Shown here: in pieces, positions 21,831 through 31,946 of the stretch
Layout of the letters: each line of letters opens with the position of its first letter
How positions within the stretch are numbered: position 1 is the stretch's first letter
Assembly: GCA_028873745.1 (NCBI GenBank)
Contig: JAPPNT010000168.1
Coordinates: 1 to 32,261 of the forward strand
Source of the DNA: Chloroflexota bacterium
GTDB lineage: Bacteria; Chloroflexota; Dehalococcoidia; Lucifugimonadales; UBA1127
Direction of reading: 5' to 3'
Length of the DNA: 32,261 bases
Position numbers and translations under genes: made by a program
The notes under the pieces: model-generated
The model's database searches: none
The model's input: only the letters and a program-made list of their open reading frames with translations
What the model was told of the DNA's origin: nothing

Positions 21831-21906
21831 GCGCGGCGTAGCTCAGTGGTAGAGCCCTTGCTTCCCAAGCAAGTTGTCGTGGGTTCGACTCCCATCGCCC
21901 GCTCCA
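21831..21906 (+). tRNA. tRNA-Gly (anticodon CCC) with encoded CCA and an extra nucleotide in the 5' acceptor strand
   Basis: Cloverleaf read by hand: D arm GCTC/GAGC, anticodon arm CTTGC-TTCCCAA-GCAAG, T arm GTGGG-TTCGACT-CCCAT, 3' acceptor CGCCCGC-T-CCA. From memory it resembles E. coli tRNA-Gly(CCC). The 5' strand is GCGCGGCG (8 nt) where GCGGGCG is expected. Confidence 0.75.
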
Positions 21907-21996: not shown

Positions 21997-22785
21997 CTAG
22001 CCGCCGGGCACCAGGTTGCGCAGGATGCTGAAGATGCCGTGGCCCTTAGAGTCGGCAGCGGGGGCGTCGAAGTGGAGGCCGCACTCGGTCTTGTCGAAGC
22101 CGGCCCAGCGGCCCGCCCGGGGGTCCTCGCCGATCTGGACAGGGCGCGTGCAGTGCGTGCAGCCGAGGCTGGGGTAACCCTGGTCGTTCAGCGGGTTGTA
22201 GGGGACATCGTGCTGGGCCAAGTAGGCGCGAGTCTGGGCCTCGTCCCACGCAGCCAGCGCGTTGACCTTGATGAGGCCGAACTTGGCGTCCCACTCGACG
22301 ATGGCGACTTCCTTGCGCGTGGAGGACTGGTCGCGGCGGATGCCGGTGATCCACGCGTCGAAGCCCTCGAGGGCGCGGGCAGTCGGCTCGACCTTCCGGA
22401 GGTCGCAGCAGAGGTTGGGGTCGCGGAGCCAGAGGGCCTCGCCGTACTGCGTGGCCTGCTCGAGGGGCGTCAAGGCCGACTTGTAGGCGCGGGGCTCGAT
22501 GCCGTAGCGCTCGGCGACCAGATCACGGAGCTCGTAGGTCTCCGGGAAGAGGAAGTCCGTGTCAGCGTAGAAGACGGGGACCCTCGGGTCCAGTTTGAGG
22601 GTCATGTCCAGCAGGACCATGCCGCTCACTCCGCCGAAGCTACATGCGAGCGTGACCTTGCCCGGGAACTGCTCGATCGCCCAGGCCAGGATCTCCTCGG
22701 GCGACGCGCCCTCCAGCCGCCGGTTGACGGCCGCGAGTTCCTCGTCGGTCCACTGCCTGCTCTTCTCGACTGCCGTGTTCTGCAA
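21997..22785 (-). CDS. cysH: adenylyl-sulfate (APS) / PAPS reductase, Fe-S-cluster type
   Basis: C-terminal ECGLH catalytic motif plus the CC (NLCCDLRK) and CxxC (GCTHCT) pairs typical of APS reductases. Start placed at TTG 22785, behind GAAGGAGAAGG. The ORF's TTG at 22821 sits inside the terminator U-tract. Confidence 0.85.
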   Translation of the reverse strand: MQNTAVEKSRQWTDEELAAVNRRLEGASPEEILAWAIEQFPGKVTLACSFGGVSGMVLLDMTLKLDPRVPVFYADTDFLFPETYELRDLVAERYGIEPRAYKSALTPLEQATQYGEALWLRDPNLCCDLRKVEPTARALEGFDAWITGIRRDQSSTRKEVAIVEWDAKFGLIKVNALAAWDEAQTRAYLAQHDVPYNPLNDQGYPSLGCTHCTRPVQIGEDPRAGRWAGFDKTECGLHFDAPAADSKGHGIFSILRNLVPGG

Positions 22786-22819
22786 GGGTCCTTCTCCTTC
22801 TCCCCCGTGGTTGGTGCAC

Positions 22820-22852
22820 AAAAAAATCGCCCTGGCTCATCCGCCGGGCGAT
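22820..22852 (-). terminator. intrinsic terminator (attenuator) in the cysH leader
   Basis: Minus strand: AUCGCCC-GGC-GGAUGA-GCC-A-GGGCGAU followed by UUUUUU, 35 nt upstream of the cysH start. Confidence 0.6.
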
Positions 22853-22883
22853 TGCGTGGTGTCTGCGCGCTTCTTGCGTAGTC

Positions 22884-22982
22884 CTAGCCGCTCAGAACCT
22901 CCGACCCGGCGGATGCGGGCATACAACAGCAACAACACACGCAGCTGCTTGCCATGACCACTGTCTGCCGGTTCCGGTACAT
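22884..22982 (-). CDS. Cys-rich leader peptide MYRNRQTVVMASSCVCCCCCMPASAGSEVLSG (alternative start ATG 22955 gives 23 aa)
   Basis: Small ORF between the candidate promoter and the attenuator terminator. Six Cys codons fall within seven codons (22943-22923). AGGAGG lies 13 nt upstream of ATG 22982. The ORF is below the size cutoff of the supplied ORF track. Confidence 0.5.
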   Translation of the reverse strand: MYRNRQTVVMASSCVCCCCCMPASAGSEVLSG

Positions 22983-23013
22983 AACTTGACTATTTCCTCC
23001 TGACTCGTGAAGG

Positions 23014-23042
23014 ATGGTACAAGCCTTATCAAGGTCTGTCAA
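23014..23042 (-). promoter_or_regulatory. candidate promoter for the cysH leader
   Basis: Minus strand: TTGACA (23042-23037), 17-nt spacer, TACCAT (23019-23014). Confidence 0.4.
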
Positions 23043-23068
23043 TACCCTGTGGCAGAATTGGCATTTCC

Positions 23069-23097
23069 TTGCCCGGCCGGGCGCTCGCGCAGATAAT
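23069..23097 (+). promoter_or_regulatory. candidate divergent promoter for the 97-aa hypothetical gene
   Basis: TTGCCC (23069-23074), 17-nt spacer, GATAAT (23092-23097). Confidence 0.35.
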
Positions 23098-23125
23098 GGC
23101 GGCGCACCCGAGGGAGGCGCAAACC

Positions 23126-23419
23126 ATGCTTGCGGTGATACAGCGGCACGAGCTTGGCGGGGACGAGCACGTCCTGCCCCTGCTGCTCGATGCGTACCCG
23201 GTCGACACGGTGGGCCAGTTGCACTACTTCCTCGTGTTCTGGTGCCAGGCGGGGCGCGAGGCCATGGTGGGCGCGATGGGCGAGGAGCTCGTCGGGGACA
23301 TGCTGGCGTTGCTCAGCGAGTACGGCGTCGACCCGGACCAGTGCCGGCTGGAGGAGTCGGACGGCGACGAGGACCCGAGCATCGGCCCGCCGCCCGATTG
23401 GTTTCGGCGGAGGGAGTAG
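23126..23419 (+). CDS. hypothetical acidic protein, 97 aa
   Basis: GGGAGG SD 8 nt upstream of ATG 23126. Nearly all third codon positions are G/C, consistent with coding in this genome. No recognisable domain. Confidence 0.55.
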   Translation: MLAVIQRHELGGDEHVLPLLLDAYPVDTVGQLHYFLVFWCQAGREAMVGAMGEELVGDMLALLSEYGVDPDQCRLEESDGDEDPSIGPPPDWFRRRE

Positions 23420-23521: not shown

Positions 23522-24007
23522 TTATGACTCGCCCGCAAAGCTGGCGATCTCGATGAACGTGCGGGCCTCTTCCGACCAGTCGAACAGCTTCGCTTCCACG
23601 ACGCGCTCCGCGTCTATGCCCACCACGAGCTGCTGCACGGGGAACATCTTGCCGTCGCCCCAGGGGTCAGTCGCGTTCTCAATGTCCACGTTGGACAGGT
23701 ACGAACGGCCGTTGGGGTGCGAGTGGTAGATGATGAGCGGCGGCTCGTCGGAATCGAACCCCTGATTGAACGCGAGCACGTCCTCCTTGCTGAAGACGTA
23801 CGCGGTCTCCTCGCCTCGCATCGCCGCCGTGGGGTGGATGCCCTGCGACTGGGCGTTTCGGCATGGACGCGTGGTCGTCACAGCGTCACCGCCGCGCGGG
23901 CCAGCGAGCCAACCGCAGCACTCGGCGGGGAAGGCCTCGCGAGCGTGGGCGTAGATCGTCTGAAGAATGGCGGGTGGGACGTGCAGGGGAGCTGGGGTGT
24001 CGGCCAT
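23522..24007 (-). CDS. JAB/MPN (Mov34) family metallopeptidase
   Basis: JAMM elements: E in PAECCGWL, then HSHPNGRSYLSNVD. 161 aa. AAGGAGG SD. Confidence 0.8.
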   Translation of the reverse strand: MADTPAPLHVPPAILQTIYAHAREAFPAECCGWLAGPRGGDAVTTTRPCRNAQSQGIHPTAAMRGEETAYVFSKEDVLAFNQGFDSDEPPLIIYHSHPNGRSYLSNVDIENATDPWGDGKMFPVQQLVVGIDAERVVEAKLFDWSEEARTFIEIASFAGES

Positions 24008-31620: not shown

Positions 31621-31883
31621 CAAACAACAAAAGACCCGCCCCAACAAGGGACGGGCTTGGAAACCCGCGGTACCACCCTTTTTCCACCGCCGGCACCTTC
31701 GCCGGGGTGACGCTCTGCAGGGCGCCATCACGCCCCTTCCCGGTAACGGCGGGAGGCCGTCGCGCCTACTGGGTGTTTCAGCGCGATGCTCAGGAGGGAT
31801 TTTCACCGGGCGCCCGCCTGTCCGCTCTCACCGTACCGGACTCGCTGGAGGCTGCCTTCCCGGCTACTCGTCTCCGTCAACGC
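31621..31883 (-). promoter_or_regulatory. T-box leader, specifier AUC (Ile), with terminator/antiterminator
   Basis: Minus strand elements:
- GA/K-turn region, with the GAGUA (AGUA) element in the specifier loop.
- AG bulge AGCGA and distal loop GGUGAGAG.
- Specifier loop UGAAA-AUC-C (AUC at 31800-31798).
- F-box CCGUUA.
- T-box AAAGGGUGGUACCGCGGG (UGGU at 31675-31672).
- Terminator GCCCGUCCC-UUGUU-GGGGCGGGU followed by CUUUUGUUGUUU (31656-31621). Confidence 0.8.
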
Positions 31884-31946
31884 ACGGTACAGGCTAGCAT
31901 GGCGGCGCGGGGAGGGTCAAGACGGCGGGGGATGGGGGGCCTAGGC

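Follow-up and report, generated by a model that had tools for sequence, protein, structure and literature searches.

What is a run of six cysteine codons doing in a short, unannotated open reading frame (ORF) directly upstream of cysH, between a promoter and a hairpin that ends in a U-tract? We address this question for a 32,261-nt stretch of DNA from a Chloroflexota bacterium of the class Dehalococcoidia (GenBank assembly GCA_028873745.1, contig JAPPNT010000168.1), which we refer to in its whole length as the window. Leader-peptide transcription attenuation is textbook knowledge for Trp, His, Leu, Thr, Phe and Ile/Val, and the cases on record for cysteine are translational (mycobacterial) or purely predicted (cysS). 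We find that the element upstream of cysH is very probably (roughly 85%) a classical ribosome-mediated transcription attenuator with Cys regulatory codons, which would sense Cys-tRNA(Cys) and control cysH. A preliminary description of this DNA, made from the letters alone, had put forward much the same mechanism under the label of a translational attenuator; strictly, such a device is transcriptional attenuation read out by translation, and the label is replaced here.

The cysH leader and its cysteine codons

The leader was read base by base on the minus strand between 22700 and 23200, with all coordinates being those of the whole stretch. The following features define the transcription unit:

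23014 to 23042, minus strand: sigma-70-type promoter, with the -35 element TTGACA at 23042-23037, a 17-nt spacer and the -10 element TACCAT at 23019-23014
22996 to 23001, minus strand: Shine-Dalgarno (SD) site AGGAGG, 13 nt upstream of the ATG of the leader ORF
22884 to 22982, minus strand: leader ORF of 32 codons plus UAG (22886-22884), encoding MYRNRQTVVMASSCVCCCCCMPASAGSEVLSG
22923 to 22943, minus strand: putative regulatory Cys run, codons 14-20, TGC GTG TGT TGT TGC TGT TGT, 6 Cys in 7 codons
21997 to 22800, minus strand: cysH with its SD site GGAGAAGGAG (approximately 22800-22791), from TTG at 22785 to the stop at 21997

The promoter shows 10/12 consensus matches in an independent scan, and shuffles of the region average 0.1 promoter-like sites; transcription is predicted to start near 23007, approximately 25 nt before the leader ATG. 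The leader occupies a 340-nt divergent intergenic region, and its ORF is uncalled in public assemblies, in which identical contigs leave these 340 nt without a gene. Use of the leader frame, extended upstream to 52 aa, as a query returned no candidate from a collection of 5.8 billion proteins. Promoter, AGGAGG, ORF, Cys run and the TTG start of cysH at 22785, as well as the hairpin and the 11/11 complementary segments considered below, all lie on the minus strand where the preliminary description had located them.

The cysH product matches PF01507 (E 4e-47) and NF002537 (274 bits), contains the CC...CxxC and ECGLH motifs, and is a phosphoadenylyl-/adenylyl-sulfate reductase; its best matches in the genome collection are from Dehalococcoidia metagenome-assembled genomes (MAGs). 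The distance from the U-tract to the cysH start is 34 nt and includes the SD site, and a search of these 34 nt for a promoter belonging to cysH itself found none, so that a fully efficient terminator would silence cysH. The gene is monocistronic, since what follows is on the opposite strand: a tRNA-Gly gene and the gcvPB end.

The density of cysteine codons in the run contrasts with a frequency of 0.9% of codons in the genes of the window (23 confident genes), and the sequence TGYTGYTGYTGYTGY, five consecutive TGY codons, is found once in the window and in 0/100 shuffles. An excess of TGT in the run, noted by eye in the preliminary description, is borne out by counting: TGT accounts for 4/6 Cys codons in the leader vs 12/79 in window genes (binomial P = 0.006), and across 15 representative leaders from the loci described below TGT:TGC is 59:27 (69% TGT) vs 12:67 in window genes (15% TGT). 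This preference could tune decoding speed via G-U wobble by a single tRNA-Cys(GCA), or could alternatively keep the Cys run weakly structured. A scan of the window and of all 153 cysH loci collected here for other poly-Cys ORFs returned, outside the four leader families described below, only out-of-frame CCC triplets inside genes.

Mutually exclusive folds of the leader RNA

Downstream of the Cys run, the leader RNA can be divided into pairing segments that compete with one another, in addition to a segment 1 near the start of the ORF:

22901 to 22977, minus strand: long hairpin 1:2 (anti-antiterminator, possibly a pause hairpin), with a 5' strand at 22977-22953 paired to 22923-22901
22905 to 22915, minus strand: segment 2, CAUCCGCCGGG, 5' arm of the antiterminator, located within the ORF from 8 nt past the last Cys codon
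22858 to 22899, minus strand: hairpin nested within the loop of the antiterminator, GGUUCUG...CAGAcACC, which includes the leader stop codon
22838 to 22848, minus strand: segment 3, the antiterminator 3' arm, CCCGGCGGAUG, comprising part of the terminator 5' arm and the loop
22820 to 22852, minus strand: intrinsic terminator, AUCGCCCGGC-GGAUGA-GCCAGGGCGAU (22852-22826) followed by U6 (22825-22820)

The terminator hairpin has 10 bp with one bulged A and a folding energy of -16.5 to -17.9 kcal/mol (RNAfold), and its tail amounts to seven consecutive T if the paired one is counted. A simple terminator scan returned no terminator at the leader because the stem carries the bulged A, and RNAfold was used instead. 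Segments 2 and 3 are perfectly complementary (11/11), and the 30 nt that follow the Cys run can form with the 5' half of the terminator a duplex of -27.7 kcal/mol, which is matched or beaten by 0.05% of 9210 window 30-mers (66% GC; P = 0.0005). Hairpin 1:2 (-34.5 kcal/mol by RNAfold, 22982-22896) holds the Cys codons in its apical part and segment 2 in its 3' strand, and together with the terminator it constitutes the minimum-energy fold of the untranslated window leader. The same preference for 1:2 plus terminator is found for the untranslated leader in 15/15 representatives, with a free energy difference (ddG) of +0.3 to +25 kcal/mol. With the terminator 3' arm not yet available, segment 2 pairs instead with segment 3 in the fold of the window.

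The influence of a translating ribosome was modeled by a barrier that occupies -12 to +15 relative to the first base in the P site and that no helix may span. In this model of the window leader, a ribosome with its A site on Cys codons 14-19 favors the antiterminator by 2.5-6.9 kcal/mol, while A-site positions from codon 20 onward bury segment 2 and make the antiterminator impossible; once the ribosome has reached the stop codon it has segment 2 behind it, 1:2 re-forms (-31 kcal/mol) and only the terminator is possible downstream. The preliminary description had argued that stalling on the Cys run would free segment 2 for the antiterminator, that unimpeded translation would favor termination, and that the two structures exclude each other; the folds agree on each count, with a naked leader that prefers the terminator state and a modeled stalled ribosome that favors the antiterminator in the window. 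Its kinetic caveat, that a ribosome parked at the UAG would end short of segment 2, stops mattering in the barrier model, because hairpin 1:2 would re-form behind the ribosome and sequester segment 2, and the terminating ribosome would stand in the way of a 2:3 helix, which would need to enclose it. A ribosome model in which covered bases were simply barred from pairing allowed helices to enclose the ribosome, gave artefactual energies where mask and forced antiterminator overlapped, and was superseded by the barrier model.

These folds suggest how the leader would operate. Transcription would start approximately 25 nt ahead of the 32-codon ORF, and the nascent leader would have two exclusive folds available: one in which segment 2 pairs back to the start of the ORF (1:2) and the 3:4 terminator with its U-tract would stop transcription near 22820, and another in which segments 2 and 3 would form an antiterminator that blocks the terminator and allows RNA polymerase to enter cysH. 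The lead ribosome would select the fold. When Cys-tRNA(Cys) is scarce, it would stall with its A site on one of the first five Cys codons (22943-22926), splitting 1:2 and exposing segment 2, which would capture segment 3 once this is transcribed, and cysH would be expressed. When Cys-tRNA(Cys) is plentiful, the ribosome would pass segment 2 and reach the UAG, leaving segment 2 inside the ribosome or re-paired with segment 1; a 2:3 helix would need to close around the ribosome, and the terminator would form with cysH off. A leader that is not translated would form 1:2 and 3:4 and terminate, as in trp 'superattenuation'.

Might the hairpin and U-tract be something other than mainly a terminator? 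In translational attenuation of the mycobacterial type, a stall on the Cys run would expose the cysH ribosome-binding site; poly-Cys leader ORFs of M. smegmatis act so at locus Ms5788 (bioRxiv 10.1101/834739), and one full-length fold of the window leader pairs the freed terminator 3' arm and U-tract weakly with the cysH SD region. This pairing would, however, arise in the read-through state, which is the wrong sign for regulation, and the cysH SD site lies 20-30 nt beyond the hairpin, outside it and in poorly conserved sequence. A conserved hairpin followed by U6-7 (family A) or by 3-8 U (families B, C and D, all described below) is, moreover, the signature of an intrinsic terminator. We thus regard translational attenuation as an improbable account of this locus and prefer transcription attenuation, alongside which some translational component is possible.

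Selective conservation in syntenic loci

To place the leader among its relatives, cysH loci were gathered from 185,579 species genomes and from metagenomes, and 153 loci were scanned. Thirteen of these (L001-L007, L037, L080-L082, L114 and L153), from distinct Dehalococcoidia MAGs and metagenomes, make up family A, which was aligned together with the window (n = 14). They share with the window the gene order JAB-domain gene, 97-aa gene, leader, cysH, with only part of this synteny visible in L080 and L082, where the contigs end early upstream, and their CysH proteins are 62-94% identical to that of the window (47% in L153). ORF, Cys run, antiterminator segment and terminator are retained in all 13 loci, as illustrated by the leader peptides MSRNRQIATMANSCVCCCCCMPASAGMEGLSG, MPLARQAQTIPNSAVIDSCVCCCCMPASAGVEVLSG and MSSISLQVIKSDAETSGRCICCCCCCMPASAGVEVLNA. 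The leader frame is open from the aligned start to the aligned stop in 14/14 sequences, despite an identity of 32-40% in the N-terminal part among distant ones, every member has 4-7 Cys in the run, and indels within the run are multiples of 3 nt. The -35 TTGACA is kept in 13/14 aligned sequences, and the T/A positions of the -10 element are also conserved.

The alignment also bears on the translation start, which the preliminary description had left ambiguous between 22982 and 22955. The start at 22982 is the one retained, because it aligns with the ATG and SD site of L001, L002, L003 and L006, in which AGGAGG or AAGGAGG sits 11-13 nt before the aligned ATG; the ATG at 22955 is ATC in L001 and GTG in L003. 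In the subgroup of L004, L005, L037 and L080, the SD site is GCAGG(C)AGG and lies nearer to its own start codon.

Conservation is highly uneven along the leader. Comparing distant members of family A with the window, identity is 72-83% from the Cys run through segment 2 and 85-97% in the terminator, vs 32-35% in the N-terminal part of the ORF and 36-41% in the spacer; cysH itself has 66-69% nucleotide identity in the distant members where it was measured (L007, L081 and L082). For the terminator at 22852-22820, nucleotide identity to the window is given as 88-100%, including loci with cysH at 66-69%. The 9-bp core of the antiterminator, UCCGCCGGG, pairs in 91% of family-A alignment cells, the terminator in 98.6% and hairpin 1:2 in 74%, so that conservation of this last helix is only partly shown; when the terminator is formed, segment 2 is paired to ORF sequence upstream of it in the window, L002, L004, L005 and L080. 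RNAalifold predicts the antiterminator helix unaided from the family-A alignment, and the nested hairpin contains one pair with a two-sided change (GC in four sequences, UA in four). Within the segment 2 core, L153 excepted, the only substitutions are C-to-U, each of which keeps a G-U pair; in L004 and L006 such a change turns Ala into Val, and L081 alters the peptide (MPAS to TPTS) with the core untouched. Pair-preserving changes in the core, including a non-synonymous one, argue that the constraint after the Cys run is on the RNA rather than on the peptide.

This pattern is pertinent to a second explanation, in which the small ORF would be an independent gene for a functional Cys-rich peptide, metal- or redox-active or the precursor of a modified peptide, with its own terminator and upstream of cysH by chance. 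In family A the ORF is indeed conserved in frame, as is the C-terminal half of the peptide (…CCCCMPASAG.E.LSG), and the mycobacterial study allows that some such peptides might have a function of their own (bioRxiv 10.1101/834739). Yet this conserved half coincides with the RNA pairing segments and is conserved at synonymous positions too, the core tolerates non-synonymous changes that retain pairing, and the N-terminal part varies freely. A free-standing peptide gene would also leave cysH without a promoter of its own in the 34 nt past the terminator. As the families described next share with family A the Cys run and not the peptide, and the element always stands ahead of sulfate-assimilation genes, we consider a peptide gene very improbable, and read the ORF as the sensor of a transcription attenuator.

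The most divergent member of family A deserves separate mention. L153 (740-1170) has a family-A leader with mismatches in terminator and antiterminator and a shortened U-tract, and an in-frame stop interrupts its cysH close to the start. The locus gives the impression of being in decay, or else of being poorly assembled, and attenuator and cysH seem to degrade together.

Independent leader families upstream of sulfur genes

Three more leader families, unrelated in sequence to family A or to each other, precede cysH or a sulfate permease-cysH operon. They share one layout: a promoter, an ORF with the Cys run, a segment located 2-12 nt past that run and complementary to the terminator 5' arm, a terminator and a sulfur gene. 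Family B (L020, L022, L024 and L038) has the leader MISRTPCCCCCCIPEGASRPLGECAREITDR and the terminator CCCCCUCGGC...GCCGAGGGGG plus U5, with CCGAGGGGG located 2-4 nt past the Cys run. Family C (L018 and L019) has the leader MQMCACACCCRHSSEEVG ahead of a sulfate permease-cysH operon, and family D (L118) has the leader MVAQMQMFSCCCATCPGGPIGSA. U-tracts in these three families comprise 3-8 U, some of them interrupted, and sequestration is by hairpins other than the 1:2 of the window.

For 15 representatives, a stalled ribosome was placed on the second Cys-stretch codon, and the RNA on its 3' side was folded as far as the terminator loop. In this stall fold the terminator 5' arm is occupied in every family, and the partner segment begins 2-12 nt after the Cys run in all representatives except L019. 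L038 of family B is without the UCGG part of the terminator and uses a shifted register, GGGGUUCG x CGAACCCC, so that the pairing is kept by a different solution. Relative to genomic 30-mers, the antiterminator duplex has P values of 0.006 and 0.005 in family B, 0.05 in family C and 0.23 in family D.

In families C and D (L018 1060-1240; L118 2290-2410), the leader ATG follows the -10 element after just 7-9 nt (TACCAT...ATG and TATGGT...ATG); in both, the peptide begins or continues with MQM. Both families may be leaderless or close to it, like mycobacterial ORFs.

Could the same structures instead belong to a metabolite riboswitch, or to a protein- or tRNA-dependent antiterminator, with the Cys codons incidental? 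S-box and Cys T-box elements govern sulfur and cysteine genes in other phyla, as Grundy and Henkin 1998 describe so far as they are quoted in PMC1262725 and as is otherwise general background, and the genome studied here has a T-box upstream of leuA (31644-31889). Rfam models, however, give no relevant match to the leader (22700-23200), T-box and SAM families included, either at the gathering score or at E up to 10, where the sole matches are mir-602 and ar14, the latter at 18.9 bits with its cut-off at 58.8, both irrelevant; nor does any Rfam model match in 20 related loci. A riboswitch match, which the preliminary description had named as a finding that would speak against it, was therefore looked for and does not appear in the leader or in these loci. 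RNAalifold finds no conserved aptamer-like multi-stem structure in the family-A alignment, and besides the terminator logic the four leader families share only the in-frame run of Cys codons, for which the probability of chance is negligible. We hold a riboswitch or a factor-dependent antiterminator to be no more credible than a peptide gene, and return to ribosome-mediated attenuation as the reading to be weighed.

Attenuation is carried by the sequence elements, their complementarity, the energies and the selective conservation across species and four families, and several points weigh against it. The 13-nt spacing from SD site to ATG exceeds the optimum, hairpin 1:2 is strong in the window clade and weak in the L007/L081 subgroup, and many other Dehalococcoidia cysH loci are without the element. 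The preliminary description had proposed to examine relatives for conserved Cys runs with covarying arms; the ORF, the Cys run and both arms are conserved, but the terminator and antiterminator helices of family A are near-invariant and two-sided compensatory changes in them are absent, with shuffle controls being uninformative. Because family A is without classical covariation, we draw support for the structures from region-specific conservation and from the independent families. That the ORF is translated, that transcripts end at the U-tract and that expression responds to cysteine is inferred, as is the tight transcription-translation coupling that the mechanism would require in Chloroflexota. 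Finally, in most relatives the terminator stays thermodynamically stronger than the antiterminator despite a stalled ribosome. Given this greater stability in the stalled state, the switch must be kinetic, and the antiterminator would win since segment 3 emerges ahead of segment 4. In the E. coli trp leader the terminator is likewise more stable than the antiterminator, going by published stem energies.

Two groups of cysH loci that have no poly-Cys leader show arrangements of their own. L008, L009 and L011-L013 have a conserved promoter-like block, CTTGAC...ACTTTATCCAC, approximately 60 nt upstream of cysH, with a very short 5' untranslated region, and this block may be an operator for a protein regulator. 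In a further group (L010 and L014-L017 are listed with it), cysH stands directly behind a sulfite reductase gene, in sir-cysH operons.

Relation to known attenuators

The window leader has the defining features of a classical attenuator at the level of sequence: a leader ORF with an SD site, a cluster of cognate codons, a terminator and an antiterminator pairing. Like the enterobacterial trp, his, leu, thr, pheA and ilv attenuators, it combines a short leader ORF containing a run of codons for the pathway end product with a predicted logic of 1:2 (in relatives only partly conserved), 2:3 and 3:4, a stop codon upstream of the terminator, and an untranslated RNA that favors the terminator. The leu leader is reported to use rare synonymous codons in its regulatory run, and the window leader resembles it in this respect. 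Unlike these systems, the leader described here would sense cysteine and control the single gene cysH in a host from the Dehalococcoidia (Chloroflexota), and its Cys codons lie in the apical part of 1:2 rather than in the 5' strand only. It has no sequence similarity or Rfam match to the Trp, His, Leu or Thr leader families.

Window and mycobacterial leaders are alike in that cysteine or sulfur metabolism genes are preceded by a short ORF that is unannotated and has Cys codons in succession, and in comprising several independently evolved loci in one lineage; in mycobacteria, a stall on the Cys tract relieves repression. The M. smegmatis operon containing Ms4527, one of the poly-Cys loci, is the sirA-cysH operon. 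In contrast to the leaderless mycobacterial ORFs, the window -10 element ends 31 nt before the ATG with the SD site between them, the transcription start being predicted, and the switched structure is a U-tract terminator with the cysH SD site outside it, rather than a structure that unmasks an SD site. The possible near-leaderlessness of families C and D is a further mycobacterial parallel. The leaderless poly-Cys ORFs of M. smegmatis are cysteine-responsive attenuators that unmask an SD site (Canestrari et al. 2020, bioRxiv 10.1101/834739; Mol Microbiol 114:93), with one locus dissected and the mechanism elsewhere left open by the authors (bioRxiv 10.1101/834739).

Other cysteine leaders are known from prediction. 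The uORFC-8-2 motif upstream of cysS in Rhodobacterales is a predicted ribosome-mediated attenuator, made up of a Cys-codon upstream ORF and an intrinsic terminator (Brewer et al. 2021, PMC8632094). Compared by architecture, the two are alike in that the first stem holds Cys codons and the terminal stem runs into a series of U, with tandem Cys at approximately codons 14-15 in uORFC-8-2 and a run from codon 14 here; the motif differs in having two Cys codons, mostly UGC, in controlling the Cys-tRNA synthetase gene, in its occurrence in Alphaproteobacteria and in being a prediction. Short ORFs with Cys-codon runs also occur upstream of Mycobacterium and P. acnes cys operons and of cbs in B. longum (Seliverstov et al. 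2005, PMC1262725), where the Actinobacterial cys leaders have no conserved terminator hairpin and Rho-dependent termination was suggested (PMC1262725); unlike these, the window leader has a complete terminator and antiterminator set. These two precedents on the record, the mycobacterial case (bioRxiv 10.1101/834739) and the cysS prediction (PMC8632094), make the view taken in the preliminary description, that Cys-codon leader attenuation is rarely documented, about right, although it is not undocumented. Firmicutes Cys T-box and S-box leaders similarly choose between terminator and antiterminator ahead of sulfur genes according to cysteine or sulfur status; there, uncharged tRNA or SAM (S-adenosylmethionine) binds the RNA directly with no leader translation, and the Rfam models do not match here.

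A search of the literature found nothing relevant on a Chloroflexi leader-peptide attenuator or on a terminator-type cysH leader. We lean slightly toward the broader view that a terminator-based 'cysteine ribulon' originated independently several times in Dehalococcoidia, with at least four unrelated UGU-enriched poly-Cys attenuators controlling genes for sulfate uptake and reduction; this would be the first such attenuation in Chloroflexota and the first of the terminator type for cysteine biosynthesis. If true, the ribulon implies tight ribosome-RNA polymerase coupling in Chloroflexota, and suggests that the transcription-translation coupling needed by the mechanism operates in Dehalococcoidia. 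The cysH leader would fill the cysteine gap in the attenuation repertoire by a known mechanism, with no new category of regulation. Four independently evolved solutions within one class of mostly uncultured bacteria make the design easily testable, and the succession of promoter, Cys-run ORF, terminator-arm complement and terminator provides a search signature for regulatory short ORFs that gene callers miss. In metabolic models of these MAGs, cysH would be marked as cysteine-repressed.

Genomic surroundings

Apart from cysH, no other sulfur-assimilation gene was found in the window. The features neighboring the leader and cysH, and a second regulatory RNA at a distance, are:

23069 to 23419, plus strand: conserved 97-aa gene, divergent from the leader, with ATG at 23126
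23522 to 24007, minus strand: JAB/desampylase-like gene
21833 to 21903, plus strand: tRNA-Gly(CCC)
29968 to approximately 31640: leuA-type 2-isopropylmalate synthase gene
31644 to 31889, minus strand: T-box leader RF00230

The 97-aa gene has the promoter TTGCCC-17-GATAAT and its own SD site, and its product has no Pfam or NCBIfam match. Its synteny with the JAB/desampylase-like gene holds in all family-A loci whose contig extends there (55-94% identity).

The tRNA-Gly(CCC) gene beside cysH is matched by Rfam at 55.9 bits, and ARAGORN finds no tRNA in the window. Compared with its orthologues in L001, L004 and L006, the window gene is short of one G in the G-run of the acceptor stem (GCGGGCG -> GC-GGCG), and this 1-nt deletion accounts for the ARAGORN miss; the deletion reflects a sequencing or assembly error at a homopolymer of the window, or else marks a defective tRNA gene.

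The T-box leader upstream of the leuA-type gene is full length and scores 96.1 bits. Taken together with the cysH leader, it indicates that this genome employs tRNA-sensing and, apparently, ribosome-sensing attenuation.

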